Virus record (IMG/VR): IMGVR_UViG_3300011113_000415
Source of the DNA: a virus
Lineage: Duplodnaviria; Caudoviricetes
DNA: 64,000 bases
Direction: 5' to 3' (one strand)
Both the position numbers and the translations under genes were made by a program. Positions 6,495 through 53,159 of the stretch are shown here, in pieces. How positions within the stretch are numbered: the first letter of the stretch is position 1; every line of letters begins with the position of its first letter. The notes below the pieces were generated by a model. The model made no database searches and was not told where the DNA came from. It saw nothing but the letters and a program-made list of their open reading frames with translations.

Positions 6495-7120
6495 TGCGAA
6501 CTGCTCTGGACACAGAGTTGTTTCCAGATCTTTGTGAAGTGGTAGAAATACCACTTCACAGTCAATGGGTTTATCTAATTCAGAAAAACGGAAACAGCAG
6601 TTTGAGGCGTCAGCAAGCAAGAGACAATCTTAATGTGTTTGCCAATGACCAGATTCGAGCACTTGACTATGTGGATGTTTACATACGCAACCCTCGAGCC
6701 AGATACGTCAGTGGAGTTAACACATACCTGCAACATCTTCAACGCGATCACCCTGAATTAGACTTTTCTACAGCCTTTTGGTTTGCCAAACGCTATAAAT
6801 TTCTCAACACTCATTACCTACCACAATTTCATTGGTTGGCCAATCTCTCTCGGTACATGCATAGTGATGCAAAAATACGATTGAGAAATTTCAAAGACTT
6901 TGCTAAAATTGCAGATTACCATGATCGAGCCATGGTTTTGGACCCAACAAGTGAATTTGTTAATAGTTTGTTGAAAGACAATAACCACCTAGAGTTATGG
7001 CTGTTTTTGGATCAAATACTTTTAGATTTGGCAGGTCAAGAATTCTCATGGTCACAGTTGTTAGAGTATTACAAATGCAATCATATGAATATTATACAAA
7101 ATGTATTGCCCAAGACTTGA
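6494..7120 (+). CDS. Sulfotransferase family protein
   Basis: 5'-PAPS-binding-like IQKNGNSSL, 3'-phosphate-binding IRNPRARYVSG and a HYLPQ motif typical of the Sulfotransfer_2 type. Confidence 0.6.
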   Translation: MRTALDTELFPDLCEVVEIPLHSQWVYLIQKNGNSSLRRQQARDNLNVFANDQIRALDYVDVYIRNPRARYVSGVNTYLQHLQRDHPELDFSTAFWFAKRYKFLNTHYLPQFHWLANLSRYMHSDAKIRLRNFKDFAKIADYHDRAMVLDPTSEFVNSLLKDNNHLELWLFLDQILLDLAGQEFSWSQLLEYYKCNHMNIIQNVLPKT

Positions 7121-8066
7121 TCACTTTGTGAGATTCAATCCCAATGGCACCCTGAGTCGTTGTGGACACATGATCAATGCTCCACAGTTTGATAGTCTGG
7201 AGCAAATGGAATCAAGTGAATGGTTGGCCAGTATCAAAAGCATGCCCAACACATGGCCCAAAGAGTGTGTGAGATGTCAACAAACCGAACAAGTCAACAA
7301 TACAAGTATAAGACTAAATGCCATTGAATTTGACAAAGGACAAACTAGGACCGACTATCTCATAGTTGGCGGAGTGTTAGACAACATTTGTAACAGTGCT
7401 TGCCAATCCTGCAATCAAAATTTAAGCACAAAAATAGGTAGTTTGATATCGCGAGATTATCCTATTGTAGATAACTCTAATGCTTTTTGGCAATTGCCGT
7501 TGGATCGTGTGGTGCATTTGGACATCAACGGCGGCGAACCCAGTGCCAGCAAGAATTATCGCAATATACTGAAAAATATTCCGCCATCGGTGACCAGTGT
7601 CAGAATCAATACCAATTGTTCCACAGTAATAACAGAAATAGAGCATCTGCTAGATCGTGGTATACATGTGACTGTAACTGTGAGTTTGGATGGCATTGGT
7701 TTGATACATGACTATATACGCTGGCCTATAAAATGGCAAAATTTTGAACGCAATCTCTTGACCTATAAATCAATGAACATAACAGAATTAAATACATGGA
7801 CCACTGTGAGTGCATTGAATATTGGAGACTTAAAAAATATTTTTGCATACACTAGAGATCAAGGTATCAATCACTCGTGGGCATTGTTAGAACAACCTGA
7901 TGTGTTGAATGTAAAATACAACAATCATTTTACAAGAACGGCAGATGTACCAGATCGATTGAAATCTATAGTGGGTAACAATAAAGACAACACAGTAGAA
8001 CTACAGTTGTGGACCTATCAACAAGATCAGTTACGAGGAATTAAACTTTGGGATTATTATCGATGA
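7101..8066 (+). CDS. Radical SAM protein with N-terminal Cys-rich (twitch-like) domain
   Basis: CNSACQSC (CX3CX2C), GGEP, NTN, SLDG; N-terminal YCP and ECVRC. Confidence 0.8.
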   Translation: MYCPRLDHFVRFNPNGTLSRCGHMINAPQFDSLEQMESSEWLASIKSMPNTWPKECVRCQQTEQVNNTSIRLNAIEFDKGQTRTDYLIVGGVLDNICNSACQSCNQNLSTKIGSLISRDYPIVDNSNAFWQLPLDRVVHLDINGGEPSASKNYRNILKNIPPSVTSVRINTNCSTVITEIEHLLDRGIHVTVTVSLDGIGLIHDYIRWPIKWQNFERNLLTYKSMNITELNTWTTVSALNIGDLKNIFAYTRDQGINHSWALLEQPDVLNVKYNNHFTRTADVPDRLKSIVGNNKDNTVELQLWTYQQDQLRGIKLWDYYR

Positions 8067-8608
8067 AAATAGCAATCACAGGTGGCACTGCTGGAATAGG
8101 ACAGGCACTAGGCAATGAGTATGAAAGTCGTGGACACGAGGTTCTAAGATTGAGTAGAAGAACCGGGCACAACATACGTGTTTTGCCTAAGATTGCTGAT
8201 GTCATAGAACCCTGTGACGTATTTGTGAATAATGCTCAAGTTGGTTATGCTCAAACTGAACTACTGTTTGAAATGGCCAAACGGTGGTCAGGTACCAATA
8301 AACACATTTTGGTCATAAGCACCATGATGACTCGGGATCCCACGAGTGTGTTGCCTGGACTTGACATGACAGCCTATCGTGTGCAAAAACTTGCACTTGA
8401 GGAAGCAGTAAAGCAAATAAGACATCAGCGGCTGGGAGTCAAAATTTCCCTTGTGCGACCAGGCAACGTGGCAACCAGTGCAGACAAAACCGTGCCACCA
8501 GCGGCCGATGTCAGCATCTGGGCGTCAGTATTGATTAAAATACTGGAAATGGCCAACGCAAACAATTTGATTATTCCGGACATATCACTAGGACCAGCAT
8601 ATAAATGA
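8063..8608 (+). CDS. Short-chain dehydrogenase/reductase
   Basis: ITGGTAGIG Rossmann motif, FVNNA and YxxxK (YRVQK). Confidence 0.8.
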   Translation: MKIAITGGTAGIGQALGNEYESRGHEVLRLSRRTGHNIRVLPKIADVIEPCDVFVNNAQVGYAQTELLFEMAKRWSGTNKHILVISTMMTRDPTSVLPGLDMTAYRVQKLALEEAVKQIRHQRLGVKISLVRPGNVATSADKTVPPAADVSIWASVLIKILEMANANNLIIPDISLGPAYK

Positions 8609-9756
8609 CTCCACGTGATATGTTGACCAATCCATATTTCTGTCCCATGCCCTGGACAGGCATGATGTATAATTTTGACGGTAAAGTTAAAAATTGTATT
8701 CGCAGTACTGGACCGCTTGGCAATATCAAAGATCAACCTATTGGTCAAATTCTAGTTGATAACAATCGTGAAAGACAGCAAGAAATTGTTGATCAAATGC
8801 CAGTAAAAACTTGCTATACCTGTTACGACCTAGACCGTGGCAAAAAAGGATTTGATCATATCAGTGACCGCGTGTTTTACATACGAGAATTGAAAAGCAC
8901 ACCAATTGACACTTATCAAATTGGTCGCTTTGATTTACAAACAGTTGATGTGCGTTGGACCAACCTTTGCAATTTTGCATGCGTATATTGCGGTCCTGAA
9001 TTTAGTAGTCGATGGAGCGAAGAACTCAAAATCCAGCATGACATACCCAATCAACATCAGTTAACGGATTTTAAAAATTACATTTACGAACATGCGTCTC
9101 AACTCAAGCATGTGTACCTGGCCGGCGGTGAGCCGTTGTTGATGAAAGAAAATCTAACACTCTTGGAAAAATTGCGCCCTGACACCAATATTAGAATCAA
9201 CACCAACCTAAGCAAAGTCGATACCAGGGTGTTTGAGGCCATATGTAAATTTTCAAATGTGCATTGGACCGTCAGCGTTGAAACGCAAGCACAAGAATTT
9301 GAGTATGTACGACATGGCGGTAAGTGGACAGATTTTTTGGATAACCTAACCATTATCAAGCAGTTGGGTCACAAAATTTCTTTCAACATGTTGCATTTTT
9401 TATTAAACTACAACTCTATATTTGACTGTGTTGATTTTTTGAAATCTTTAGGATTTCACAACAACAGTTTTGTGATTGGAGCATTGTTGAATCCTGAATA
9501 CCTAAATATTAGACACTTACCAGAAAGTGTGCTAAACTCTGTAAAGAACAAGTTACAAGATAGGATCAGCCAAAAACCAGGTTATCTTCTTGAAGACAGT
9601 TATCAAAATTTGCTACACTATATTGATACTCCATTTGGAAAAAATATTCAACAGTCCATTGATCGGTTATCAGAATTGGATCGACGTAGGGGCGTAGATA
9701 GCAAGACAATTTTTAAAGATTTATATAAGGACATAAACTATGGCAAAACCATTTGA
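8605..9756 (+). CDS. Radical SAM protein with N-terminal twitch-like domain
   Basis: FCPMPW, TCYTC, CNFACVYC, AGGEP, INTN. Confidence 0.85.
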   Translation: MTPRDMLTNPYFCPMPWTGMMYNFDGKVKNCIRSTGPLGNIKDQPIGQILVDNNRERQQEIVDQMPVKTCYTCYDLDRGKKGFDHISDRVFYIRELKSTPIDTYQIGRFDLQTVDVRWTNLCNFACVYCGPEFSSRWSEELKIQHDIPNQHQLTDFKNYIYEHASQLKHVYLAGGEPLLMKENLTLLEKLRPDTNIRINTNLSKVDTRVFEAICKFSNVHWTVSVETQAQEFEYVRHGGKWTDFLDNLTIIKQLGHKISFNMLHFLLNYNSIFDCVDFLKSLGFHNNSFVIGALLNPEYLNIRHLPESVLNSVKNKLQDRISQKPGYLLEDSYQNLLHYIDTPFGKNIQQSIDRLSELDRRRGVDSKTIFKDLYKDINYGKTI

Positions 9757-10798
9757 CGTAAGCAAGTTCCGCAAGGAAATCACCAAAAGCATTGACGGCT
9801 TGTCAATCGGATTCAATGATCCCACAGACTGGATCTCCACAGGCAACTATGCCTTGAACTACCTAATTTCAGGAGACTTTAACCGAGGTATTCCCTTGGG
9901 AAAGGTAACTGTGTTTGCCGGTGAATCAGGAGCAGGTAAAAGTTATATCTGTTCAGGCAACATTATCAAGAACGCACAAGAACAAGGCATCTTTGTGGTG
10001 TTGATTGATACTGAAAACGCTCTTGACGAAGATTGGCTCAAAGCGTTAGGAGTTGATACATCAGAATCAAAGTTATTAAAACTAAGCATGGCCATGATTG
10101 ATGATGTGGCCAAAACTATTTCTACATTTATGAGTGACTACAAGGGCCTAGCAGATGGAGAACGCCCCAAAGTGTTGTTTGTGATTGATTCATTGGGCAT
10201 GTTGCTTACCCCCACAGATGTTAATCAGTTTGATGCAGGTGAAATGAAAGGCGACCTGGGTAGGAAGCCCAAGGCACTCACTGCATTAGTTCGCAACTGT
10301 GTCAACATGTTTGGCAGTTACAACGTGGGCTTGGTATGTACCAATCACACCTATGCCAGCCAGGATATGTTTGATCCTGATGACAAGATCTCCGGCGGTC
10401 AAGGTTTTATTTACGCCAGTAGTATTGTTGTTGCTATGAAGAAACTCAAACTCAAAGAGGACGAGGACGGCAACAAAGTGTCAGACGTCATGGGTATTCG
10501 CTCAGCCTGCAAGGTAATGAAAACACGTTATGCCAAACCCTTTGAAGGTGTGCAGGTCAAGATTCCTTACGAAACAGGCATGAATCCTTACTCAGGCTTG
10601 GTGGACTTGGCTGAAAAGAAAGGCTTCTTGAAAAAGGACGGCAATCGTTTGGCTTACACTACACTAGACGGTGAAATTCTCAAACACTTCCGCAAAGCCT
10701 GGGAGTCAAACGAAGGTGGTGTGCTTGACATTGTGATGTCAGAGTTTGGTCGACGCAAAGAAGAGGTAAGTACCCAGGAGGAAACACCAGATGAGTGA
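9740..10798 (+). CDS. uvsX: RecA-like recombinase UvsX
   Basis: Walker A GESGAGKS, IDTENALD, VIDSLG, NHTY and SGGQG motifs. Confidence 0.93.
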   Translation: MAKPFDVSKFRKEITKSIDGLSIGFNDPTDWISTGNYALNYLISGDFNRGIPLGKVTVFAGESGAGKSYICSGNIIKNAQEQGIFVVLIDTENALDEDWLKALGVDTSESKLLKLSMAMIDDVAKTISTFMSDYKGLADGERPKVLFVIDSLGMLLTPTDVNQFDAGEMKGDLGRKPKALTALVRNCVNMFGSYNVGLVCTNHTYASQDMFDPDDKISGGQGFIYASSIVVAMKKLKLKEDEDGNKVSDVMGIRSACKVMKTRYAKPFEGVQVKIPYETGMNPYSGLVDLAEKKGFLKKDGNRLAYTTLDGEILKHFRKAWESNEGGVLDIVMSEFGRRKEEVSTQEETPDE

Positions 10799-11048
10799 AA
10801 CAATAGCAAGTGAAATATGGTCTGAACTCAAGCGTTTTGTAAACACAGTGGACCGTGCGGAAGCCGCAGAAACTGTGATACAGATCTTGATGGACAATGA
10901 TTCGGACGTGGAAGATATTAGAAACGCCTTCAAAGGCGACGGTGACATCAAACGTGCTTTGACCACGTACCTTGACAATGACAAGGACTATGAGGAAGAT
11001 GAGTACGACGAAGATGAGTACGAAGAGGAAGAAGACTGGGAAAATTAA
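10791..11048 (+). CDS. Small acidic hypothetical phage protein
   Basis: 85 aa, translationally coupled to uvsX, Asp/Glu-rich tail. Confidence 0.65.
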   Translation: MSETIASEIWSELKRFVNTVDRAEAAETVIQILMDNDSDVEDIRNAFKGDGDIKRALTTYLDNDKDYEEDEYDEDEYEEEEDWEN

Positions 11049-12559
11049 TGAATCAATTGGATTTATTATTGGCCACACTACCACCAAATTATTTGAATGA
11101 ACCTCCTATAGCACCAGCCTTATTAAAATCAGCAGTAGAAAAGCAAGGATTTACTTGTCGAACACTGGATTTTTCACTGCATTGCTTACAAAAAATTTTC
11201 AAGGGACATTATGAGACTTATCTTGAGTGGGGAAACAGTTTGCCCAATCATGTGGATTATAACAAGGTAAGTGAGCAACATAAATTTCAACTGAATCAGG
11301 CAATCAATGAATTCTTAAACCTATTGGAAGAATTTAATCCACGGTTTTTGGCTTTGAGTGTTTTTAGTCTATGGCAACAGAGATTTTGTTACTTTCTTTG
11401 CCAGAAAATTAAAAATTCAAAATTTGAATGTAAAATTATTATTGGAGGCATGGGTTGTACACAGCCGCCAAAAGGACTGTATTCAATATCTAGTTTAAAT
11501 TATTTTGAAAAGAAAACTAGTTTTGCTAATTTTATGTTATCTAAGAAATTAACAGACTTTGCTATTGTTAACGATGGAGAACAAGAATTAGTAAATGTTC
11601 TAAGAAGTTCTGATAACTATTTGAGTTCTTTGATTTCCAACGAAACCAAATTTGATTATGACTACGTTCCTAGTTTTGATGATTACAAATTAGATCAATA
11701 TCTTTTTACTAATAATGAAAAAAAGTTATTGGTTCAAGGTTCCAAAGGTTGCATTCGTCAATGTGTCTTTTGCTCAGAACACAGTAACTATTCACAGTAT
11801 TATTTCAAAACTGGAATCAAAATTGCCAACGAAGTAATCTATTTGAGCAAAAAATATGGAATATATAAATTTCAATTTACAGACAGTTTGACCAATGGAT
11901 CTTTGAAAGAATTTAAAAATTTTGTTAGAATTTTAGCAGAGTACAATCAAACTAATCCGCAAAATCAAATTAAATGGCATGGTAATTATATATGCCGGAC
12001 TCAAAATCAAATGACCAATGATGATTTTCAATTGCTTAAATTGTCGGGTGCTCACGGACTAACTATTGGTGCCGAAAGCGGTAGTAATAGGGTGCTGGCA
12101 GAAATGAAAAAAAATACTACTGTAGAAGATTTGTTGTATGAAATAACAAAATTTCATCAATATAATATTGATTGTAATTTGCTTTTTTTAATAGGATTCT
12201 ATAATGAAACCTGGCAAGATTTCTTGTCAACATTAGATTTATTGAAAAAATTGCAAAGATATTTCTTTGATGGAACTATAAGCAATATTAGATTAGGGTA
12301 TACTTTGATGTTTGATGATGCCCAGCATTATCGTTTGAACGACTTTGAGTACACATCTGACAATCCTTATGACTGGATATGGCTCAAAAATTCTACTCTC
12401 ACTCTCCGAGAAAGAGTAAGAAGAAGAATTATTGCTCAGGAATTTTGTGACGCTCTGGGCATTCCGGTGGCTTTTGCAAGAGAAGACCTAATTGTTCTAA
12501 ATTCAATTTACAACAATATGTTATCGGCACTCGAGGAGTCAGCAGTTGGCACTCATTGA
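11048..12559 (+). CDS. Cobalamin-binding (class B-type) radical SAM protein
   Basis: N-terminal B12-binding-like domain (PPIAPALLK..KIIIGG), SKGCIRQCVFC, FTDSL, IGAESG, LIGF. Visibly AT-rich. Confidence 0.8.
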   Translation: MNQLDLLLATLPPNYLNEPPIAPALLKSAVEKQGFTCRTLDFSLHCLQKIFKGHYETYLEWGNSLPNHVDYNKVSEQHKFQLNQAINEFLNLLEEFNPRFLALSVFSLWQQRFCYFLCQKIKNSKFECKIIIGGMGCTQPPKGLYSISSLNYFEKKTSFANFMLSKKLTDFAIVNDGEQELVNVLRSSDNYLSSLISNETKFDYDYVPSFDDYKLDQYLFTNNEKKLLVQGSKGCIRQCVFCSEHSNYSQYYFKTGIKIANEVIYLSKKYGIYKFQFTDSLTNGSLKEFKNFVRILAEYNQTNPQNQIKWHGNYICRTQNQMTNDDFQLLKLSGAHGLTIGAESGSNRVLAEMKKNTTVEDLLYEITKFHQYNIDCNLLFLIGFYNETWQDFLSTLDLLKKLQRYFFDGTISNIRLGYTLMFDDAQHYRLNDFEYTSDNPYDWIWLKNSTLTLRERVRRRIIAQEFCDALGIPVAFAREDLIVLNSIYNNMLSALEESAVGTH

Positions 12560-13132: not shown

Positions 13133-13585
13133 ATGTGGTACAGTAGAATAGTTGCCAGTCTTGCCGCAGTTCCAGATTTTATCAGTCACTACGAGCGCGA
13201 ACTTGAAGATGCCAAACGAGACTGTAAAATCTCTGGCATAGTAGAAAAAAATATCACAGCCTTGCCTGGAATAACCGAACATAGATTCAATCAACTGCAA
13301 GAGATTGAAGCAGTACTCAATTACCTCAACATACAATTGAGAAAAATACGCAGAAAGCACTTTCAAAAATATCTTGAAAATTATGCCCGTGCTCTTACAT
13401 CTAGAGATGCTGAAAAATACGTGGATGGCGAAGATGAAGTGATTGATTATGAAACCATCATTAACGAAGTGGCCTATCTCCGTAATCGTTGGCTAGGAGT
13501 CATGAAAGGCCTAGACTCCAAATCCTGGATGTCAGGACATGTGGTGCGGCTAAGAACTGCGGGCATGGAAGATATCCAGGTGTAA
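13133..13585 (+). CDS. uvsY: Recombination mediator UvsY-like protein
   Basis: 150-aa helical protein with YLENYARALTSRDAEKYVDGE and MKGLDSK, as in UvsY family members; lies near uvsX. Confidence 0.75.
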   Translation: MWYSRIVASLAAVPDFISHYERELEDAKRDCKISGIVEKNITALPGITEHRFNQLQEIEAVLNYLNIQLRKIRRKHFQKYLENYARALTSRDAEKYVDGEDEVIDYETIINEVAYLRNRWLGVMKGLDSKSWMSGHVVRLRTAGMEDIQV

Positions 13586-13593
13586 ATACCTGC

Positions 13594-14352
13594 ATGAAAA
13601 TCGTAATTGTTTCAGGCGGGTTCGACCCACTTCACTCCGGGCATATTTCCTATCTCAATCACGCCGACCATCTGGGCGATCATGTGGTCGTGGCATTGAA
13701 CTCAGATGCTTGGCTTACACGCAAAAAAGATCGTCCGTTTATGTCTTGGCGTGAACGTATGACTATACTAGACAATCTGCATATGGTTGGCGAAGTGATT
13801 GAATTTGACGATACAGATGGCACAGCCTGCGATGCTATTCGGCAGGTTAAACAAAAATATCCCAATGATGAAATTATTTTTGCCAATGGCGGAGATCGCA
13901 CGGCAGAAAATATTCCAGAAATGATATTTGATGATGTAGAGTTTGTGTTTGGTGTAGGCGGCGAGGACAAAGCCAACTCTAGTTCGTGGATACTTGAAGA
14001 CTGGAAGAAACCCCGGACAGAACGTGCTTGGGGTTACTATCGTGTGCTACACGAAGTAGGAAATCACGTCAAGTTAAAAGAACTCACAGTCAATCCCAAA
14101 ACATGCCTTAGTATGCAACGCCATGACCAACGTGCAGAGTTTTGGTTTGTAGCAGAAGGTGAAGCCACGGTGTACACAGTTGACCCGCATAGTACAGAAT
14201 ATGACTTGATGGCCAGTCCCTCAAAGCATCAGTCGACCTGGATCCGACTCAATGAATGGCATCAATTGTGCAATGAAACTGACAATCCTTTGAAGTTGAT
14301 TGAAATTCAATACGGCGAAAATTGTGTGGAAGAGGACATCGAACGTCGATGA
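13594..14352 (+). CDS. Bifunctional cytidylyltransferase-like (HIGH family) / type II mannose-6-phosphate isomerase cupin
   Basis: SGGFDPLHSGH, VALNSD, FANGGDR and SSS; C-terminal RAWGYY..LSMQRH..RAEFW cupin. TAAATA at 13583. Confidence 0.85.
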   Translation: MKIVIVSGGFDPLHSGHISYLNHADHLGDHVVVALNSDAWLTRKKDRPFMSWRERMTILDNLHMVGEVIEFDDTDGTACDAIRQVKQKYPNDEIIFANGGDRTAENIPEMIFDDVEFVFGVGGEDKANSSSWILEDWKKPRTERAWGYYRVLHEVGNHVKLKELTVNPKTCLSMQRHDQRAEFWFVAEGEATVYTVDPHSTEYDLMASPSKHQSTWIRLNEWHQLCNETDNPLKLIEIQYGENCVEEDIERR

Positions 14353-15038
14353 AAGACATTATACCAATCTTTATTGGGTATGATCCTCGAGAAGCCATTG
14401 CTTATCACACCTGTGTGAATTCGATCATCAGACATGCAACTTGCCCTGTGAGCATTGTGCCAGTGGCCTTGAACTTGTTTCAAGACTATAGTGAAACACA
14501 CACCGACGGATCAAATCACTTTATCTACACACGTTTCCTAGTGCCATATCTAATGAACTATGTAGGTCATGCCATCTTTATCGATGGCGACATGATCTTG
14601 AGAGATGACATTTCAAAGTTATGGGCCCTACGTGAATACAGCAAAGATGTGCAAGTGGTCAAACATGATTATCAAACCCGGATGACAGAAAAATATTTAG
14701 GTGCAAAAAATGAAAATTACCCGAGAAAAAATTGGTCTAGTGTTATTCTATGGAATTGCGGCACTTATCCTAATAGGAAACTTACACCTGACTTTATCCA
14801 GCGATCTACCGGCGCTGAACTTCATCGCTTTACCTGGATAGAAGACGATCGTATTGGGGAGTTGCCAAGAGAGTGGAACTGGTTGCCTGATGAATACGGG
14901 CCTAACCCAGATGCTAAGTTATTGCATTACACCTTGGGCACACCTTGCTTTCATGAATTTGCTGATACTCCTCAAGCCGATGAATGGCACCGAGAACGCA
15001 TACTAACTGAATATTGTCAGCAAAGGTTGATAGAATGA
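14349..15038 (+). CDS. Glycosyltransferase (GT8-like)
   Basis: IFIGYDPRE, FIDGDM, YPRKNWSS, WNWL, HYTLGTP. Confidence 0.8.
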   Translation: MKDIIPIFIGYDPREAIAYHTCVNSIIRHATCPVSIVPVALNLFQDYSETHTDGSNHFIYTRFLVPYLMNYVGHAIFIDGDMILRDDISKLWALREYSKDVQVVKHDYQTRMTEKYLGAKNENYPRKNWSSVILWNCGTYPNRKLTPDFIQRSTGAELHRFTWIEDDRIGELPREWNWLPDEYGPNPDAKLLHYTLGTPCFHEFADTPQADEWHRERILTEYCQQRLIE

Positions 15039-16027
15039 TTTGGGAACAGGAAGATGAATCATCATATATCCCACCTGCACCTCCTGCACCACCAGAACCG
15101 CATGTGTTAGATCAAGTTGTACCTGAGATTCGAGACATATTTGATAACATATTAAAGTATCGCGTGGATTCCGCAGGATCAGTCTATGGCATTACACTGC
15201 AAACATTGTATGCGCAAATTGCCGCATTGCCAGTTAATAACATAGTAAGCACTGACAGCGAATATAGATACGAAAGAAAAGGACACATGTACGATCCTAT
15301 CCTACAAAGTTTTGTGCAAGGTGCTGGAGGACAGATCAGCACATGGTCAAAAGAAGAATTTACCACAACTCCTGTGGTGTTGCGAGGTATTACCAAACGC
15401 AAGCAAATGGAAGCATGTCGTGCAGCCGGCAGAGATTTCTTTTATATCGACACTGGTTATTTTGGTAATGGTAAAAAGAAACTGTACCATAGAATCACAC
15501 GCAATGATGTACAGTGGTTTGGGCCTGTAATAGAACGTCCTGGGGATAGACTAAGCAAAATCGGAGTACAACTCAAAAAGTTTAGACGTGGTCGTAATAT
15601 CTTGTTGGCTCCGCCTAGCCAAAAATTATTGAACAATTATGATATCAATCTTAAAGAATGGTTGGCCAATGTACAAGAAGAAATCGCTCAATACACTGAC
15701 AGACCCGTGGTAATTAGAACCAAGCAAGGACGCAGTACCAGAGTCAACGACGATACCATGGAAATGGCCTTGGATCGCGATGTACATTGTTTGGTTACAT
15801 TTTCCAGCATTGCCGCAGGCGAAGCCTTGCTACATGGCAAACCTGCAATCACACTGGGACCAAATGCAGCCGCGCCACTGTGCAGTCAGAGTTTGTCAGA
15901 AATTGAAAATCTCAAAGTCCCTACATTGGACGAAGTTGAGGCCTGGGCCCGCCACATAGCATATTGTCAATTTACTGAAGCGGAAATGCGTGATGGTACC
16001 GCCTGGCGCATATTAAACAATGCTTGA
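15035..16027 (+). CDS. Capsule-biosynthesis (KpsS/KpsC-like) GT-B protein
   Basis: YIDTGY, LLAPPS, VTFSSIAAGEALLHGKP, W..HIAYCQF..E. Confidence 0.6.
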   Translation: MIWEQEDESSYIPPAPPAPPEPHVLDQVVPEIRDIFDNILKYRVDSAGSVYGITLQTLYAQIAALPVNNIVSTDSEYRYERKGHMYDPILQSFVQGAGGQISTWSKEEFTTTPVVLRGITKRKQMEACRAAGRDFFYIDTGYFGNGKKKLYHRITRNDVQWFGPVIERPGDRLSKIGVQLKKFRRGRNILLAPPSQKLLNNYDINLKEWLANVQEEIAQYTDRPVVIRTKQGRSTRVNDDTMEMALDRDVHCLVTFSSIAAGEALLHGKPAITLGPNAAAPLCSQSLSEIENLKVPTLDEVEAWARHIAYCQFTEAEMRDGTAWRILNNA

Positions 16028-16946
16028 TTGTGTTGTGTACATTTCCAGTGTGGCCAATGTCAAAAAACACAGCCGCAAACAGCAATGTCTTGAGAGTTTT
16101 GCCACCGGTGTTGCCAACTGTGGAGGCCAAGTTAGGCTGGAACATGATTACGTATACACACCCAGTAGATTGGCAGTGATGCTGGGTTGGGCAACCACCA
16201 ACACCGGCGGTCGTAACATTGCCTTGCGCAAAGAAATCATATCTGAACAACACAGACGTGGACTTGATACCATGTGCATTGATGCCAGTTGTTTCAAGTA
16301 CCAGGATCAATCAGGTACCTATCTGCGCTATAGTTTAGGTGGTCCATTTTATGATCGTGCGGAGTACGCAAATCGCAACAGTGATTCTACCAAGTGGCAA
16401 GAAATTCAAAACAGATTGCATATCCAACTCAAGCCTGATCAATCAAGAGATGGTTATATCTTGATTGGTATGCAACGTGATGGTGGATTTAGTATGAAAA
16501 CTTTGAGCCCTTTGTTGTGGCTTGAACGTAAAATACAAGAAATCAGAAAATACACCAATCGAGCAATTGTTGTACGTCCACACCCTGGCAAGTTTGATAT
16601 GAGAGAGTTTGCGCAGTTTCACAACAAACTGAATGTTCGGGTGATTGATCCCACACAATCTACGTTGTTGGAAAATTTACAACAGGCACATTCCTCGGTG
16701 TTTTTTAACAGCAGTGCAAGTGTGGCTGCGGTGTTGGAAGGTGTACCGGTGTTTGTTGATGACGCCAGCGCAGTCACTTGGTCAGTGGCACATCACACTA
16801 TCTCACAAATAGAATCAAGTCGGGTGTTTGAAAGAGAACAATGGTTATGGGATTTGGCCACCGCACACTGGAGTGATGCAGACGCACAGGCCGGGCGTAT
16901 CTGGCAAAAGTTTCTGCCTTACTTGACTTCTACCACAACGTCGTAA
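16020..16946 (+). CDS. Capsule-biosynthesis (KpsS/KpsC-like) GT-B protein
   Basis: VRPHP, FFNSSASVAAVLEGVP, W.WDLATAHW. Confidence 0.6.
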   Translation: MLDCVVYISSVANVKKHSRKQQCLESFATGVANCGGQVRLEHDYVYTPSRLAVMLGWATTNTGGRNIALRKEIISEQHRRGLDTMCIDASCFKYQDQSGTYLRYSLGGPFYDRAEYANRNSDSTKWQEIQNRLHIQLKPDQSRDGYILIGMQRDGGFSMKTLSPLLWLERKIQEIRKYTNRAIVVRPHPGKFDMREFAQFHNKLNVRVIDPTQSTLLENLQQAHSSVFFNSSASVAAVLEGVPVFVDDASAVTWSVAHHTISQIESSRVFEREQWLWDLATAHWSDADAQAGRIWQKFLPYLTSTTTS

Positions 16947-17476
16947 TTCCAGCCTCGAACTTCAGGCCACTTTTGGCTTTTGTCAAATATAGAAATATCT
17001 TCTGAAACAATATCAACGTTCATGTTGGCCAACAACTGTTCACGCCACCATTCTGGCTTCTCCACAATCAAGTGAGCATTGCGTCCATCTGGTAACTGTT
17101 TCTTCGCAGGATAGCAGGCAATTCTAAACCATCCAGCCACTAGCATCTTGCTACCAATCAACTGTAAAGTTGCAGCCAAATGCTCGGGCTCAATGTGTTC
17201 AAATACATCTGCACTGACTATGACATCAAATGAGCGTTTGGGTATACGACTGTGTTCCACATTGCCTGGATCATAACCTTCCACACGCATGTTGGGATAA
17301 GTTTCTTGCAAGGAGTTGACCAACGCACCTACACCGCATCCAAAATCCAACACACTTGTGGGATTATAACGTTCAATTATTGAACGTACAACCTTGGCGG
17401 TTTTGGCACCATTTACGAATCTACCCTGCTGGTGCATAGTAATCAATTGCTCTTGGTATTTGGGATCTATAATCAT
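16919..17476 (-). CDS. Class I SAM-dependent methyltransferase
   Basis: VLDFGCGVG, GYDPG, DVFEHIEP, NAHLIV. Confidence 0.85.
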   Translation of the reverse strand: MIIDPKYQEQLITMHQQGRFVNGAKTAKVVRSIIERYNPTSVLDFGCGVGALVNSLQETYPNMRVEGYDPGNVEHSRIPKRSFDVIVSADVFEHIEPEHLAATLQLIGSKMLVAGWFRIACYPAKKQLPDGRNAHLIVEKPEWWREQLLANMNVDIVSEDISIFDKSQKWPEVRGWNYDVVVEVK

Positions 17477-18147
17477 CTGTGATTTACCTCTATGTATTCA
17501 TACTTGCCACTGAAAGTATCAGGCACATCCTTCCACGTTGCGTTTAATTGGTCTTCTAGCCAAGTGTTGTAGTAAGGACGATCTTTCCACCACCAGAACA
17601 AATCACCCGAGTTCCAGTCAGTATAGTGACTGCGAAAGAAGTCACGTGTTCTAGGCTGTTGAAAGTGTGCAGGATCGTACATGCTCTTTTTGCCTTTGGC
17701 TTTGCGTTGAAAATTTATGCCAATGAAACAAAACTTTTCAGCGTAGGATTCCAAACGTTTCCGCACCCACGGCATGTCATCGTCGGGTATGCTGTTCAGC
17801 ACCTGTGTACATATTACCCCATCAAACTTTGTGCCGTCAGCGGGCAGTTGTTCAAAGCCTGCCACACAAGGATCGTAACAATAGACATTGACACCAAGGT
17901 ATTTGTCAAACGTTTGCCATTGATCCGGGGGCAATTCAATTCCAGCACCGCCACCATAAGGTAAACGTTCTTTATATTGTAATCCTTTGCCGCATCCATA
18001 ATCGAGTATGGTACGGGCGCCATACCAATCCACAAGGTCTTTGATGCACTTCTGATACTTTACAACATCGTATCCAGCCCAACTCTTGTTGTTCTCTTGG
18101 AACTCACGCCCTAGTCTAACTGATTCTTGGTAATAAGAACTTGTCAT
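17473..18147 (-). CDS. Class I SAM-dependent methyltransferase
   Basis: ILDYGCGKG, YDP, FDGVICTQVL. Confidence 0.85.
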   Translation of the reverse strand: MTSSYYQESVRLGREFQENNKSWAGYDVVKYQKCIKDLVDWYGARTILDYGCGKGLQYKERLPYGGGAGIELPPDQWQTFDKYLGVNVYCYDPCVAGFEQLPADGTKFDGVICTQVLNSIPDDDMPWVRKRLESYAEKFCFIGINFQRKAKGKKSMYDPAHFQQPRTRDFFRSHYTDWNSGDLFWWWKDRPYYNTWLEDQLNATWKDVPDTFSGKYEYIEVNHR

Positions 18148-41947: not shown

Positions 41948-42435
41948 AACCCAGTCAAAAACTTGCGGCACTTGCCGAGCAAGAATTACCCAAATTATTG
42001 AATCATGTGATTGTGGCCGATGGTGACAAATATAGGGTGTTTGGATCATATGTATTACGTCAAACACCACGCGGTTACACAGTGACCTATCAAGATCAGC
42101 CAGTGGGCACATTTACCAGCACCAGAAGTGCCATGGCTTGGTGTGTAGCCGATCGAAATCGTCAGTACAATCTAGCACAAGAAATACAACACCTAGATTT
42201 TGCCCTGCTGAGACTACGCAATGATATAGAAATTCGTGGTCAACAGGCTCAAAAAGCCAGCGGAACATTTTGGGAAACAGTCACAGCCAAAACCCAACAC
42301 AAACAAGCACACAGTCAGCACCTACAAAATGAATTGACAAAATGCGTAAATCGGGCTAAATACCTACAACTTCGAGGAAGCAACAATGAAACTGCAAGAA
42401 CTGGCCGTAACACGCCCCACAAAACAAGTCGCTAA
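41944..42435 (+). CDS. Hypothetical protein
   Basis: ATG overlaps the previous stop; coiled-coil C-terminus. Confidence 0.55.
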   Translation: MKPSQKLAALAEQELPKLLNHVIVADGDKYRVFGSYVLRQTPRGYTVTYQDQPVGTFTSTRSAMAWCVADRNRQYNLAQEIQHLDFALLRLRNDIEIRGQQAQKASGTFWETVTAKTQHKQAHSQHLQNELTKCVNRAKYLQLRGSNNETARTGRNTPHKTSR

Positions 42436-43273
42436 AGTATTTGAAAGTCATTTTGACCAACGTGTGTCTTTTGACTCCATGAATCCCCGCCAAGTGCGTC
42501 ACATGCTACAACGTGTGCGTGGCCTAGTCAATGAGCATAGATCCAGTGCCGACTTCCACCACAGCGAAAAAAATCCTGCCTATCTCAAACTGATCATGAT
42601 GGAGCAGGCATTAGCACAGCAGTTGCGTGAGTATGGTGCTTCAGCCGCCGATGCAGATCCTGCCAAAACTGCTGCCTTGGCCACTGCTCAACAGCAACAG
42701 AAAAAGAAACAAATTCAAGACGAAATCAAACAAAAGCAAAAAGAAATACAAGACTTGCAAAAAGCCATGATGAATCCTACCTTGGGTATGACTGAAAACA
42801 ACACTGGCAACTTCTTGAAAGAATCAGAAATACAACAAGCACAAGTGGTATTGGCCGCTCAAGACATGGTAGACCGTGTGCAGAAAATGTTAGAAGACAC
42901 AACAGAAATGCAATTCAAAGAATTGCCTGCCTTGATTGATTCAATCAAGAATGAAGTTGGTGCTGATCAAGCCGCACAGTTCAATGCCGACGCTGCCGCT
43001 GCCTTGTCAGGCTTGGTGCAAAACTTACAGGCCAGCAAAGGTCAACTGGAGGCCGCACTGGGTGTGGTAACAGGTCAAGGTGGTGCTCCTGTGGTTCCTG
43101 GTGCCGAAGCCGGAGCCGACATTGGTGCCGAAATGGGTGCTGACCTAGGTGCAGACCTAGGAGCCGACATGGGTGCTGGTGCAGAACTTGATGCCGCGGC
43201 TGCCGCCGCCGGTGCCGAACCAGAACCCGAGCCTGCCACACCAGCAGCCAGTTTGGGTCGCGGACGTAGATAA
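42386..43273 (+). CDS. Probable prohead scaffold / internal head protein
   Basis: MKLQE leader, coiled coils, FLKES site, GAxxG pentapeptide repeats; TAAATA at 42357. Confidence 0.55.
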   Translation: MKLQELAVTRPTKQVAKVFESHFDQRVSFDSMNPRQVRHMLQRVRGLVNEHRSSADFHHSEKNPAYLKLIMMEQALAQQLREYGASAADADPAKTAALATAQQQQKKKQIQDEIKQKQKEIQDLQKAMMNPTLGMTENNTGNFLKESEIQQAQVVLAAQDMVDRVQKMLEDTTEMQFKELPALIDSIKNEVGADQAAQFNADAAAALSGLVQNLQASKGQLEAALGVVTGQGGAPVVPGAEAGADIGAEMGADLGADLGADMGAGAELDAAAAAAGAEPEPEPATPAASLGRGRR

Positions 43274-43988: not shown

Positions 43989-44375
43989 ATGGCCTACTCA
44001 GACAAAGTTATAGATCATTATGAAAATCCCCGAAATGTGGGCAGTTTTGCTACTACTGACGATACCGTTGGCACTGGAATGGTCGGGGCACCTGCTTGCG
44101 GGGATGTGATGCGATTGCAGATCAAAGTTGAAGATGGGATCATAACAGATGCAAGATTCAAAACATACGGTTGTGGGTCGGCCATTGCCAGCAGTAGCCT
44201 CGTTACAGAATGGGTCAAAGGTCGAACTCTTGAGGAAGCAGGATCCATACGCAATAGCGAGATTGCTGAAGAACTTGCTCTCCCCCCAGTCAAAATCCAC
44301 TGCTCCATCCTGGCCGAGGATGCCATAAAAGCCGCTGTAGCAGATTATCGCAAGAAGCATGATCTCGCTCACTGA
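43989..44375 (+). CDS. iscU: Fe-S cluster scaffold IscU
   Basis: YSDKVIDHYENPRNVG, GAPACGD, FKTYGCGSAIASSS, LPPVKIHCS. Confidence 0.95.
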   Translation: MAYSDKVIDHYENPRNVGSFATTDDTVGTGMVGAPACGDVMRLQIKVEDGIITDARFKTYGCGSAIASSSLVTEWVKGRTLEEAGSIRNSEIAEELALPPVKIHCSILAEDAIKAAVADYRKKHDLAH

Positions 44376-44682
44376 CACAGCAAGAAACAAAATACAACGA
44401 TTAGTCACAGCCAAAGGCTACGCTGGCATCCGCCTTGGCGTCAAAACTACTGGTTGCTCTGGGCTTGCTTATGTGTTAGAATATGTTAAAGAATACACTG
44501 ACGAACCCTACACAATAAATTACGCACAACCAGGCTTTGTAGTGTTAGTGAACCAAAAAGATGATGTATATCTACGTGGAATGACCGTAGACTATGTGCG
44601 TCAAGGCCTTAACGAGGGATTTGAATTCTCAAATCCCAATGAACGTGACCGTTGCGGTTGCGGAGAAAGTTTTCGAGTGTAA
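44359..44682 (+). CDS. iscA: Fe-S carrier IscA/HesB
   Basis: RLGVKTTGCSGLAY, FSNPN, CGCGESF. Confidence 0.93.
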   Translation: MISLTDTARNKIQRLVTAKGYAGIRLGVKTTGCSGLAYVLEYVKEYTDEPYTINYAQPGFVVLVNQKDDVYLRGMTVDYVRQGLNEGFEFSNPNERDRCGCGESFRV

Positions 44683-46343
44683 TGAAAATAAAATTTTGTT
44701 CCTTGGGTCCTGGACCAAAAACACGTTCTAAAGATAACTTTGCCTCGGTAGCAATTAACCCATCATTTTTTTTCTTTAAAAAGTACTACGAACTGCATGG
44801 TCTAAATCCCAAGGTTGATTGGTTATATCCTGAATTGGTAAAACTTGAACCGGCCCAAGATATTATCCAAAGAATTATTAATGAAAAACCAAATCTGTTG
44901 GGGTTGGGAGTTTATGTTTGGAACAATGATCTACAGTTTTTGATTGCTCAATCAGTGAAAAAACACTTGCCCAACACAATTATAGTGCTAGGGGGTCCTG
45001 ATTTGTCTGTGCATAAAGAGTTAGAACAGGACAATGATTTTTTCAATCAGCATCCATATGTGGACTATGTGGTATATGGTGATGGCGAAAAAGCATTTCA
45101 ACAGATCATTGATTATCATTCAGGCTACATGCCCGATAAACAGACGTTGATAAACACTATTGAAAATTTCAATGGCCACAAAATAGTCTATCCTTATGAA
45201 ATACTCGACGACAAATTGTATTTGAGTCAAAGTCCATTTGTAAGCAATGAGTCATTGATAACGCAAATTAGAGATGATCTAGTCCAGCAAGGCATATCCC
45301 GACGGGAACAAAAATGGTCGATTGAATTTGCTCGTGGTTGCATGTACAGTTGTAGTTTTTGTGATTGGTCTCAAAATCTTACCAAGAAAGTCAAACGAAG
45401 AAGTCATGACTGGAAAGAAGACATTGATTTATTCTGGCGATTAGATGTTCCTGTAAGAGAAACTGATGCCAATTTTGGACAATGGCCGGATGACATTAAG
45501 GCCTACGATTATGCCTGTTCACTGTATGATCCCAAACGGAATTTTTCTTTTGTTGTGGGTAACACTCCAAAACTCAAAAAGCACATTACAGAATATATAA
45601 TATACAAAAATTGCATGGTATATCATAATACAGGACACAGGCCAGCAATAAGTTTTCAGGATACCAATGATGACGTATTATCAGCCGTTGATCGTCCTAG
45701 TGTTTCCTGGGCTGAGATTGTCAAAATGATCAATAATCTCAAAGCAAAATTGAGCCCCGAAGTTTTTGGGTCAATAGAAGCAGAGATGATTCTGGGATTG
45801 CCGGAACAGACCATTGACAAAATAATTCACTCCTGCGTGACATTGTTTGACCTGGGTATCACAAAATATAGATATGATAACTGGTATATGTTGAGCAATA
45901 GTCCAGGTGCTGATCCTACCTATCAAAAAATGTGGGGATTGCAAATACACAATGTATATCAACTGCAAACACCCAAAGCATCAATACTAGACTTAGAATC
46001 GACTTATCAAAATCTAGCACTCAACCAAAGACAGGATAACACCCAGTTGTATGACATGTTTCACAAGGTATCTTTTGTTACAGGTCATAAAAAAATGTCA
46101 CTTATTGAACTTTTAACTGCAAAAATTATGCTGAGAAAATGGAACGAACTCAACCAAATTAAAAATACAGTAGAAAAATACGATTCAACACAGATTAAAA
46201 AAATCTTCAGACGATTGTTGATAGAGGCCATGATAGAATCCAAAAAACAATACAAAATTCATCAACAATATATTGACAAGTACAATATTATAGTTTGGGG
46301 ACACTACGACATCAATCAGAAAATACTTTATGAAGATTTTTGA
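44682..46343 (+). CDS. Cobalamin-binding (class B-type) radical SAM protein
   Basis: LGLGVYVWN..IVLGGP B12-domain features, GDGE, RGCMYSCSFC, DANFG, ILGLP. AT-rich; coupled to iscA (TAATG). Confidence 0.8.
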   Translation: MKIKFCSLGPGPKTRSKDNFASVAINPSFFFFKKYYELHGLNPKVDWLYPELVKLEPAQDIIQRIINEKPNLLGLGVYVWNNDLQFLIAQSVKKHLPNTIIVLGGPDLSVHKELEQDNDFFNQHPYVDYVVYGDGEKAFQQIIDYHSGYMPDKQTLINTIENFNGHKIVYPYEILDDKLYLSQSPFVSNESLITQIRDDLVQQGISRREQKWSIEFARGCMYSCSFCDWSQNLTKKVKRRSHDWKEDIDLFWRLDVPVRETDANFGQWPDDIKAYDYACSLYDPKRNFSFVVGNTPKLKKHITEYIIYKNCMVYHNTGHRPAISFQDTNDDVLSAVDRPSVSWAEIVKMINNLKAKLSPEVFGSIEAEMILGLPEQTIDKIIHSCVTLFDLGITKYRYDNWYMLSNSPGADPTYQKMWGLQIHNVYQLQTPKASILDLESTYQNLALNQRQDNTQLYDMFHKVSFVTGHKKMSLIELLTAKIMLRKWNELNQIKNTVEKYDSTQIKKIFRRLLIEAMIESKKQYKIHQQYIDKYNIIVWGHYDINQKILYEDF

Positions 46344-48094: not shown

Positions 48095-48096
48095 CA

Positions 48097-50415: not shown

Positions 50416-50424
50416 TAGGAACCA

Positions 50425-50607: not shown

Positions 50608-51816
50608 ATGAAAAAACGAAATTACACACAAGACACTGTTTGCAAACTACAAGGTAGCGTACAGATTGAACACACACTAGCCAAGCGTGGCGCATATAAA
50701 TTGCGTGAACTATTAGCCAACGAACCATACATCAATACACTGGGTGCATACAATGGACAAATGGCTGTACAACACGCCAAGGCAGGATTGAAAGCAATTT
50801 ATTTGTCAGGCTGGCAAGTGGCCGCAGCCAACAACACAGCCAATCAAACTTATCCTGACCAAAGTCTATATCCAGTGGATTCAGTGCCCAAGGTTGTTCG
50901 AGGCATCAATAATGCTTTCCGCCGTGCTGATCAAATTGAATACCTAGAAGGCAAGGTAACAACTGATTACTTTTTGCCTATTGTAGCAGATGCGGAAGCC
51001 GGCTTTGGTGGTGCATTGAACAGTTATGAACTAATGATGGCAATGATCGAAGCCGGAGCCGCCGGTGTACACTTTGAAGACCAATTGAGTTCAGAAAAGA
51101 AATGTGGCCACTTGGGTGGCAAGGTATTAATCCCTACAGGGCAAATGATCCGCACACTCAATGCCGCACGTTTGGCTGCAGATGTTGCAGGAGTAGATAC
51201 AGTTATTATGGCACGTACAGACGCAGAGAGTGCTACACTTATTACTAGCGACCATGATCCATTAGACCGGGAATTTATTATTGATGAACGCACCGAAGAA
51301 GGATTCTACAAATTTAAAAACGGCATTGATGCTTGCATTAGCCGAGGTCTTGCTTATGCCCCTTACGCTGATCTCTTATGGTTTGAAACTTCAACACCTG
51401 ATATTGCACAGGCTAAAAAATTCGCTGATGCTATACACGCACAGTACCCTGATCAAATGCTGGCTTATAATTGCAGTCCTAGTTTTAATTGGCGTAAGTT
51501 TTTAAGCGAAGACGAGTGCGAAACATTCCAACGCGAACTAGGCGAACTAGGATTCAAGTTTCAATTTATCACATTGGCTGGTTTCCACTCAGTGAACCTT
51601 GCCACATTTGAACTTGCTGAAGCATATAAGGCTCGTGGCATGGCGGGTTACGCTGAAATGCAACAACGTGAGTTTGCGGCACAGGCTCGTGGCTTTACTA
51701 CTGTGAAACATCAACGCGAAGTCGGCGTTGGATACTTTGACTTGATCAGCGAAGCAGTGGGTGCTACATCAACAGTGGCCAACAAATCATCAACTGAAGC
51801 GGATCAATTCCATTGA
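50608..51816 (+). CDS. aceA: Isocitrate lyase
   Basis: [26 protein letters not shown], catalytic [34 protein letters not shown]. Confidence 0.95.
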
Positions 51817-52004
51817 ACAGTTTTGAAAGAATATGGGCTCGGGCCACCGGGCACTTGATGGGCAAGTCAGATCATGACCGCCCAGATGTGCCCATACTCA
51901 CACTGAAGGAGGCCCGAATAGCCTTGTTCTTCAAAACGTTTTGGGTTATAATACATGTCATCACCTGTGGTTTTATTATAGCAAATACAATCAGACACTG
52001 GTGA
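51813..52004 (+). CDS. Small membrane protein
   Basis: 63 aa with a C-terminal hydrophobic segment; coupled to aceA. Confidence 0.55.
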
Positions 52005-52019
52005 AACTGAGTAAAATTT

Positions 52020-53159
52020 ATGAATTCAAAAACTTTTTGTTTGGCTCCTTGGGTCAATACCTGTGTTCTGCCTTCGGGACATTTGACGCCGTGTTGTGTT
52101 TGGCAAGAAACGTCAGATGCAACTTTTAAAGATTTTGATACTTGGCATAATTCGGACTATTTGAAAAACATTAGAAAGCGCATGTATCAAGGCGAAAAAA
52201 TTTCAGCCTGTGCCACATGTTGGCATGATGAAAGTATTGGAAAAGAAAGTCTAAGACAAATTTATAACCAAGAATGGTCAAAATTCTCTGTGAGAGATAT
52301 TATCAATAAAAATTGGCATGCTTCACACGGCGTTTGTGCGTTGGATTTAAAATTAGGAAATTTGTGCAATTTAAAATGTGTCATGTGTTCTCCTTCATCA
52401 AGTAGCCAATTGCTTTCTGAATACAAAACAAATACTACAAAATTTAACAATTTGAAATATTATGCTGTCAACTTTTTGGAAAAAGATTTTTCGTGGCCAT
52501 TGACTGATGATTTCAAAGATTTTTTAAAAAAATTCCAAAATCAATTACGGTGGATTAAATTCACTGGAGGTGAACCTACAATTATACCACATGTATTAGA
52601 TGTATTGGACAACTTGAATTGCGATAAAGTCACAGTGACCTTGGCAACCAATGGTACCAGACTTGATCAGCAATTTGTAGACAAGATTAAAAAATTTCAA
52701 ACAGTTTGGCTGACTGTGAGTCTTGAAGGTATACAAGAACATAATGATCAAATTAGATTTTTATCCCAATGGGAAGAGATTGAAAAAAACATTTTATCTG
52801 TTTATAATTTGCCAAACATCTATTTTAGCATTAATCATGTTTTGCAATGTTTTAGTGTGAATACCTTTATACCTTTGTTACAATGGTGTGAAAAATATCA
52901 AATTAAATTAGATGTAAATGTATTATCAAAACCTGAGTATCTAAGCATAAATGCAGTAGGTGTAAATATCATTGAGAAGTTTATAAATCAATTAAAGCAA
53001 ACGCATGTGACAACTAACCACCAGGTTATTCCGCATGTGCTTGGACATTTGAGTAATTATTCATACCGTCCTGATCTTGAAAAACAGCGACACGAATATT
53101 TGCAATTGTTAGATTCAATTAGGCATACAAATACAGATAATATTATTGAGGGTAAATAG
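52020..53159 (+). CDS. Radical SAM protein with N-terminal twitch-like domain
   Basis: FCLAPW, PCC, ACATCW, CNLKCVMC, TGGEP, TNG, SLEG. AT-rich. Confidence 0.88.
   Translation: MNSKTFCLAPWVNTCVLPSGHLTPCCVWQETSDATFKDFDTWHNSDYLKNIRKRMYQGEKISACATCWHDESIGKESLRQIYNQEWSKFSVRDIINKNWHASHGVCALDLKLGNLCNLKCVMCSPSSSSQLLSEYKTNTTKFNNLKYYAVNFLEKDFSWPLTDDFKDFLKKFQNQLRWIKFTGGEPTIIPHVLDVLDNLNCDKVTVTLATNGTRLDQQFVDKIKKFQTVWLTVSLEGIQEHNDQIRFLSQWEEIEKNILSVYNLPNIYFSINHVLQCFSVNTFIPLLQWCEKYQIKLDVNVLSKPEYLSINAVGVNIIEKFINQLKQTHVTTNHQVIPHVLGHLSNYSYRPDLEKQRHEYLQLLDSIRHTNTDNIIEGK

Follow-up and report, generated by a model that had tools for sequence, protein, structure and literature searches.

Five divergent N-terminal-twitch radical SAM proteins of a freshwater jumbo phage belong to a catalogued, uncharacterised family

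We analysed a 64,000-nucleotide stretch of DNA (hereafter the window) from the Caudoviricetes virus record IMGVR_UViG_3300011113_000415, focusing on five open reading frames (ORFs) for radical S-adenosylmethionine (SAM) proteins that carry a cysteine-rich block ahead of the CX3CX2C motif. The window is part of a 334,901-bp jumbo phage contig from freshwater lakes and rivers that recurs in several independent studies. The five genes are members of a catalogued, very large and uncharacterised radical SAM family and are not a new kind of system. Our best explanation, to which we assign a probability of about 0.45, is that the five are separate, anciently diverged members of the N_Twi_rSAM family that would act as two-cluster enzymes and form three independent accessory modules.

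Architecture and family membership of the five proteins

A first-pass annotation, made from the letters of the window, had described the five ORFs as sharing one architecture. All are present where it placed them, and we name them rSAM1 to rSAM5:

rSAM1, 7101-8066, plus strand: divergent N-terminal-twitch radical SAM protein of 321 amino acids (aa), with C3, C21, C56 and C59 and with CNSACQSC at residue 97
rSAM2, 8605-9756, plus strand: N-terminal-twitch radical SAM protein, 383 aa; its 3' end overlaps the start of a UvsX-like recA gene by 17 nucleotides (nt)
rSAM3, 35148-36308, plus strand: N-terminal-twitch radical SAM protein directly after dnaB; an alternative start at 35103 gives 401 aa
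rSAM4, 36276-37352, minus strand: N-terminal-twitch radical SAM protein, 358 aa
rSAM5, 52020-53159, plus strand: N-terminal-twitch radical SAM protein, 379 aa, 3 nt upstream of nrdB

The CX3CX2C motif occurs in all five proteins (CNSACQSC, CNFACVYC, CNLKCIIC, CNATCVSC and CNLKCVMC), each time preceded by a four-cysteine block of the form C-x17-18-C(C)-x34-44-CxxC and followed by the S, GGEP, TN, S and R..W positions. An alignment of 54 family sequences agrees with the motif list drawn up at first pass: its invariant cysteines are C7, C64, C67, C116, C120 and C123, the other invariant positions are S128, G183-G184-E185, N211, S234 and R246, and C25/C26, T210 and W251 are nearly invariant. No C-terminal cysteine is conserved in this alignment. 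Pairwise identity among the five is 21-29%, with E values between 1e-11 and 1e-33, and thus reflects homology and not chance. A hidden Markov model built from the five detected no sixth copy among the 313 ORFs of the window (next best E 0.64). One probably lies just left of the window start, because in the closely related L192 and L193 an extra N-twitch radical SAM gene (3299-4426 and 3054-4184, respectively) is located upstream of the terminase gene, either next to it or close by.

For two of the genes the start could be placed in more than one way. An alternative rSAM1 gene call begins at M24 (298 aa), but the long start stands, because 14 orthologues with 66-86% identity show almost no variation over residues 1-24, C3 and C21 among them; C3, C21, C56 and C59 are all invariant in rSAM1 orthologues. 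For rSAM3, the ATG codons at 35148 and 35103 are both open, and 35148 is favoured because the family profile matches residues 21-397 of the long form, leaving its first 20 residues uncovered.

That profile is NCBIfam NF033640 (N_Twi_rSAM, "twitch domain-containing radical SAM protein"), which has a curated cut-off of 170 bits. Scores over nearly the full length are 227.0 bits for rSAM2, 227.5 for rSAM3, 210.6 for rSAM4 and 277.9 for rSAM5; rSAM1 is best called a divergent relative, because it keeps all of the motifs despite a score below the cut-off. PHROG 14086 also covers the N-terminal-twitch architecture. The Pfam Radical_SAM model (PF04055, cut-off 29.5 bits) recognises rSAM2 to rSAM5 (54.7, 41.7, 30.5 and 49.5 bits) and gives 18.4 bits, below cut-off, for rSAM1, in which the motif and GGEP are kept; rSAM4 also matches Pfam Fer4_12. 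Searches of the PDB and of the Swiss-Prot part of the AlphaFold database returned no family member with a solved structure, a reviewed entry or a known reaction, and a literature search on the family name and on N-terminal twitch or SPASM domains found no characterised member. This agrees with the first-pass annotation, which had assigned no substrate. It had also set its proposal against clustering with characterised housekeeping radical SAM proteins, and the five did not cluster with these. Where it went too far was in proposing an undescribed system: the architecture is already catalogued under NF033640 and PHROG 14086 and is abundant in phages, and a 2017 paper had already reported T4-like phages in which IscU/A-type carriers occur alongside many radical SAM genes (Nishimura et al. 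2017, mSphere; PMC5332604).

Several lines of sequence evidence support the proposal that the N-terminal block is twitch-like. The block of rSAM2 (residues 13-74) matches Pfam SPASM (PF13186) at 25.3 bits, above the cut-off of 21.5, SPASM is on record for the N-terminal block of many homologues, and the layout is that of NF033640. The motif of seven or eight cysteines that marks a two-cluster SPASM domain is lacking from the 54-sequence alignment; because only four auxiliary cysteines are conserved, one auxiliary cluster is indicated and not a full SPASM domain. In an AlphaFold (AF2) model of rSAM5 (pLDDT 91.5), a hairpin at residues 13-23 is followed by helices and by the CxxC at 64-67, all ahead of the barrel. 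When the N-terminal domain was modelled by itself and compared exhaustively with 48,161 chains, the best match was to residues 164-249 of BtrN, with a root-mean-square deviation of 4.4 Å over 80 residues and a weak Z score of 3.6. BtrN also came first in a Foldseek search with the isolated domain, at an E value of 2.8, and five of the six rows returned were radical SAM entries (BtrN, TigE and SuiB). A sequence profile of the N-terminal domain alone had no significant match in the PDB. When whole chains were searched against the PDB and reviewed AlphaFold entries, the matches stayed within the radical SAM core (SkfB, MoaA, BlsE, anSME and viperin), with template-modelling (TM) scores of about 0.4. 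The further suggestion that twitch domains are typical of peptide modifiers fits SPASM better, since the N-terminal domain has its one structural match in BtrN, an enzyme crystallised with a small-molecule substrate. To our knowledge, other twitch enzymes with known substrates act on small molecules too.

These features, read with what is established for radical SAM enzymes, suggest how the proteins might work. Each would bind two [4Fe-4S] clusters, one at CX3CX2C and one at the four N-terminal cysteines. The first would reductively cleave SAM, and the resulting 5'-deoxyadenosyl radical would abstract a hydrogen from the substrate. The auxiliary cluster is most likely an electron conduit, because all four of its ligands are cysteines, and a conduit of this kind would fit two-electron radical reactions, for example dehydrogenations, epimerisations, dehydrations or decarboxylations. 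IscU and IscA encoded by the phage probably help to load the clusters.

Spread of the family and its three slots in the window

A profile search of 1.84 billion cluster representatives (50% identity) recovered at least 7,258 proteins at E values of 1e-30 or less. Many of them are fusions of about 800 aa with two units, and many proteins of about 770-1,400 aa (P0245-P0249, P0254 and others) contain two full N-twitch radical SAM units in tandem; judged from these sequences, paralogues do become fused in nature. Viral members make up 97-100% of the nearest ESM Atlas clusters, and IMG/VR holds more than 574 relatives, with 4, 8, 12, 16 and 23 family matches on five large viral contigs and, among 81 loci, up to seven copies inside 20 kb. 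In cellular genomes the best 80 loci come mostly from metagenome-assembled genomes (MAGs) of Bdellovibrionota, a list that is biased by the use of a single back-translated search pattern. Five Bdellovibrionota genomes have 4-13 matches each, often in tandem and on chromosome-scale contigs. Cultured carriers among jumbo and T4-like phages are Vibrio phage phi-pp2 (L190; pp2_255/pp2_256) and Ralstonia phage RsoM2USA (L191; RsoM2USA_349). In KVP40-type phages the family members form a convergent pair annotated as "moaA/nifB/pqqE family" beside nadV; sequence comparison led us to reject this pair as specific orthologues of rSAM3 and rSAM4.

Across a 166-sequence tree, viral rows are mixed throughout with bacterial ones (39 label changes), and the five window proteins never group together. 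On this tree the five copies are anciently diverged members of separate subfamilies and not recent duplicates. The interleaving of viruses and Bdellovibrionota points to exchange on repeated occasions, to phages that infect these bacteria or to contigs that were mis-binned. The tree also contains several well-supported virus-bacterium sister pairs (Bdellovibrionota MAGs in L106-L189, IMG/VR loci in L013-L091).

The first slot lies between the genes for a gp32-like single-stranded DNA-binding protein (SSB, 5505-6494) and UvsX (9740-10798) and is filled by a translationally coupled cassette of four genes, a 208-aa ORF, rSAM1, a small short-chain dehydrogenase/reductase (mini-SDR) and rSAM2; stops and starts overlap along this row. 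The two genes that accompany rSAM1 and rSAM2 are:

208-aa ORF, 6494-7120, plus strand: first cassette gene, overlapping the rSAM1 start by 20 nt; virus-only family
mini-SDR, 8048-8608, plus strand: about 181-186 aa; N-terminus of the Rossmann NAD(P)-binding type; partial matches to Pfam Epimerase and adh_short

The mini-SDR probably starts at 8063, overlapping the stop of rSAM1, and ends across the start of rSAM2. In the Atlas it falls among viral short-SDR clusters of 170-187 aa, and its sequence is present there from residue 6 on. The 208-aa ORF has no match in Pfam or PHROG, and its nearest Atlas clusters are 100% viral; there are weak hints of sulfotransferase or capsular-polysaccharide-like proteins (Sulfotransfer_2 in 14% of one cluster, an NKWYS score of 0.93). 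L192 and L193 have a 208-aa gene and a 181-aa gene in the SDR position at the same places, and in both rSAM1 (81-82% identity) and rSAM2 (82-84%) keep their cassette positions. More than 120 clusters of rSAM1 orthologues were found at 65-86% identity.

In the second slot, DnaB (DnaB_C at 33710-35155) is followed by rSAM3 and the convergent rSAM4, which overlap by 33 nt. The third runs nrdA, isocitrate lyase, rSAM5, nrdB, with rSAM5 coupled to its partner:

nrdB, 53163-54263, plus strand: class Ia R2 type (Ribonuc_red_sm, 138.6 bits), conserved downstream partner of rSAM5

Eight other contigs (L001-L003 and L011-L015) also have an rSAM5-nrdB pair. Their rSAM5 orthologues (45-69% identity) stand 1-9 nt upstream of nrdB in most cases and at a longer distance in L003. 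The genes between nrdA and rSAM5 vary, related contigs having other genes or none there; in the window this place is taken by an intact isocitrate lyase gene (50608-51816; ICL family, 340 bits). In G001, a more distant, collinear 260-kb IMG/VR contig, SSB-UvsX, the DnaB region and nrdA-nrdB are all present but free of rSAM insertions, and its 12 family matches lie elsewhere. Its lack of insertions had raised the idea that all five genes are hypervariable "morons", which we rejected since closer relatives keep both the cassette and the rSAM5-nrdB pair. Because the slots are dispersed, because the two that were examined in relatives are conserved or lost independently, and because the proteins belong to separate subfamilies, the five genes appear to form three independent accessory modules that share an Fe-S supply, and do not look like one pathway.

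NrdB itself departs from the usual sequence. Around residues 116-126 it reads FFETNIHSRSY, against FSET-IHSRSY in the aligned E. coli R2, a one-residue insertion in the first ExxH motif. We take the Glu and His of this motif to be metal ligands in E. coli R2, situated just before the radical tyrosine. The ETNIH insertion is present in all NrdBs encoded beside an rSAM5 orthologue, as well as in another 120 homologues that are 87% or more identical, and it is absent from those of G001 and L032, which are canonical and have no adjacent rSAM5-type gene. These two relatives are more distant, and the correlation between adjacency and insertion is confounded by phylogeny. A prediction of an rSAM5-NrdB complex scored 0.01, which counts neither for nor against binding. 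A functional tie between the rSAM5 lineage and the phage ribonucleotide reductase, by which rSAM5 would mature or repair the variant R2 or act on its ribonucleotide pool, is a long shot.

Fe-S genes and two further radical SAM genes complete the relevant inventory of the window:

iscU, 43989-44375, plus strand: Fe-S scaffold (NifU_N, 177.7 bits)
iscA, 44359-44682, plus strand: A-type carrier (Fe-S_biosyn, 67.7 bits), overlapping iscU and the next gene
B12-binding-type radical SAM gene, 44652-46343, plus strand: coupled to iscA; CX3CX2C; B12-binding 31.5 bits (cut-off 32.1), Radical_SAM 26.1 bits
second B12-type-like radical SAM gene, 11048-12559, plus strand: downstream of the UvsX-like gene; CX3CX2C; Radical_SAM 52.5 bits, B12-binding 19.4 bits (below cut-off)

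The profile scores confirm the iscU and iscA calls made at first pass. Of its two B12-type radical SAM proteins, both match Radical_SAM, but the B12-binding domain (PF02310) stays below cut-off in both. The iscU-iscA pair is conserved in G001, L011, L012, L015 and L032, and what follows it varies: a B12-type radical SAM gene here, nothing in L012 and an N-twitch radical SAM gene in L032.

The window also encodes terminase, primase and DNA ligase, besides the replication and nucleotide-reduction proteins already named (the gp32-like SSB, the UvsX-like RecA, DnaB, NrdA and NrdB). Downstream of the nrdB block, the gene at 55449-55832 encodes a PAAR-motif protein that is conserved in L012 and L013, a PAAR gene being present in L011 as well. 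A 295-aa ORF at 42386-43273, kept in L012 at 75% identity, matches the non-canonical E2 ubiquitin-conjugating family DUF2009 below threshold (23 bits where 25 are required; E 5e-5). A DNA search with 24 kb of the window found no match among 50,697 phage records. Fragments 0-2 letters off rSAM5 occur in three runs guessed to be RNA-Seq, which are metagenomic libraries, two of them flagged as probably DNA; the listed holders of the stretch include no RNA record.

Candidate substrates

As to what the enzymes act on, we tentatively suggest small sugar or nucleotide-sugar molecules that would feed the glycan-building genes of the phage, at least for the rSAM1/rSAM2 cassette. This is a guess that we hold at somewhat less than even odds. 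We favour it because of the mini-SDR in the cassette, the hints from the 208-aa ORF, a nearby glycan-type gene block, sugar genes beside relatives elsewhere and the small-molecule substrate of BtrN. The block, at 3.1-21 kb, comprises DUF6492, a cytidylyltransferase-cupin fusion, a family 8 glycosyltransferase (GT8) and five methyltransferases. Elsewhere, genes for nucleoside-diphosphate-sugar epimerases or dehydratases adjoin family members in nine viral loci, a GT1 gene stands beside family members in L009 and L010, and a GT2 gene stands beside one Bdellovibrionota array. As a separate observation, the part of the block at 13489-19540 is rich in methyltransferases: a cytidylyltransferase fused to a mannose-6-phosphate-isomerase-type cupin and then GT8 are accompanied by four methyltransferase genes in a row on the minus strand, one of them FkbM-type. 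No export gene was detected in this stretch.

A number of observations weigh against our overall explanation and this choice of substrate. Any substrate is conjecture, because no family member has been characterised. rSAM1 falls short of the NF033640 cut-off, at 119.4 bits (E 2e-34; profile positions 12-326 of 398), the BtrN match is weak, with its Z score of 3.6, and the core is about equally like SkfB, MoaA and viperin. Replication and recombination genes surround the cassette and are apparently transcribed together with it, and rSAM3, rSAM4 and rSAM5 have no sugar genes alongside. Across viral loci the commonest neighbours are other radical SAM proteins and proteins of unknown function, while neighbours resembling guanosine monophosphate (GMP) reductase and phosphoribosyltransferase are as common as sugar genes, and the Bdellovibrionota arrays are mostly flanked by housekeeping genes. 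A census of neighbours at the 81 loci found no single partner family.

The leading idea at first pass was modification of proteins or peptides, the enzymes introducing crosslinks, epimerisations or other radical marks into virion or host proteins in the manner of the SPASM/twitch maturases of ribosomally made peptides with post-translational modifications (RiPPs). Consistent with this, SkfB, CteB-type sactisynthases, SuiB and anSME are among the best matches of the whole chain in sequence and fold. These matches are, however, limited to the radical SAM core (TM about 0.4), and the proteins have a single auxiliary cluster motif in place of a full SPASM domain. Among the window ORFs of 50 aa and longer, none beside any of the five genes looks like a small precursor or carries a shared N-terminal tag or a Ser-rich leader, and no RiPP recognition element (RRE), peptidase or exporter was found among the neighbours. 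We therefore regard protein or peptide modification as unlikely.

We are equally doubtful of chemistry on nucleotides or DNA, in which all copies or some of them, chiefly rSAM5 and those in the SSB-UvsX cassette, would act on nucleoside or deoxynucleoside triphosphates, base precursors or DNA, like MoaA, viperin or QueE. All three slots do lie in a block for replication and nucleotide metabolism (SSB/UvsX, DnaB, nrdA/nrdB), and the coupling of rSAM5 to nrdB is conserved; yet large phages often carry accessory genes between core replication genes without a functional link, and G001 retains nrdA-nrdB and SSB-UvsX without the rSAM copies. Core similarity to the MoaA, viperin and QueE models reaches E values of 1e-7 to 1e-11 but is generic. 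Family members in L009 and L010 occur with genes for GTP cyclohydrolase I, an inosine monophosphate dehydrogenase (IMPDH)/GMP-reductase-like protein, a phosphoribosyltransferase and a Vut_1 transporter, and IMPDH-like and phosphoribosyltransferase neighbours recur in eight or nine loci. Against this, the window showed no hallmark of a base-hydroxymethylase, a DpdA-like protein or a DNA glycosyltransferase.

Least probable of these alternatives is the single dedicated pathway that the first-pass annotation had envisaged, with the five proteins, the two B12-type enzymes and IscU/IscA all working on one product: one genome with a shared Fe-S supply and the arrays of up to seven copies within 20 kb in other phages would suit it, but the copies are spread across three slots over 46 kb, the two examined slots are gained, lost or conserved independently, the five are not each other's closest relatives but belong to different old subfamilies, and L012 lacks the B12-type gene that follows iscA here, while L032 has another gene in its place.

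Relation to known systems

The family is concentrated in big tailed phages and in the predatory Bdellovibrionota, often with 4-23 matches per genome or contig. To what is already catalogued, the window adds a conserved four-gene cassette, a conserved rSAM5-nrdB pair and IscU/IscA genes coupled directly to radical SAM genes, and these loci are concrete starting points for finding the chemistry of the family. That chemistry is testable, because cultured KVP40-type vibriophages and Ralstonia phage RsoM2USA carry members. Solving one member would annotate thousands of phage genes and would show which oxygen-sensitive radical chemistry phages bring into aerobic freshwater hosts.

The closest relation is to NF033640 and PHROG 14086, with which the window proteins share the domain order of four-cysteine twitch block, CX3CX2C barrel and helical C-terminal part; rSAM1 differs in being shorter (321 aa) and in scoring under the NF033640 cut-off. 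NF033640 is defined purely bioinformatically, without an attached reaction, substrate or structure.

Among enzymes with known structures, BtrN (PDB 4M7S/4M7T), a radical SAM enzyme crystallised with S-adenosylmethionine (AdoMet) and its small-molecule substrate 2-DOIA, likewise has one auxiliary-cluster domain beside the radical SAM barrel. In BtrN, however, the matched domain is C-terminal, whereas here it is N-terminal, about 40 residues ahead of CX3CX2C, and BtrN has no detectable sequence similarity to the present proteins outside the core. The SPASM-type maturases SkfB (6EFN), anSME (4K36-39), SuiB (5V1Q) and CteB (5WGG) give the best sequence-profile and Foldseek matches to the core, and the Pfam SPASM model recognises the N-terminal block of the present proteins. 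They differ in that the window proteins have four auxiliary cysteines, for one cluster and not two, a reversed domain order, no RRE and no neighbouring precursor that we could find, and TM scores of only about 0.4. The only N-terminal auxiliary cluster that we found in the literature, that of GDGT-MAS (Tes; PDB 7TOL), is of another kind. It too lies in a domain N-terminal to the core, which matches at an E value of 9e-8, but the cluster is held by C73, C77, C80 and a His after a rubredoxin domain, there is a C-terminal cluster as well, the fold is not that of a twitch domain, and the substrate is a lipid.

At the level of the genome, the nearest parallel is provided by environmental genomes of T4-like marine phages that encode an IscU/A-type carrier alongside as many as 12 radical SAM genes (Nishimura et al. 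2017, mSphere; PMC5332604). The radical SAM genes of those phages were not classed by architecture and no substrates were proposed for them, and the present phage is from fresh water. Both are large tailed phages that combine an Fe-S scaffold or carrier with many radical SAM genes, and the authors of that study likewise inferred that the phage supports its own Fe-S enzymes.

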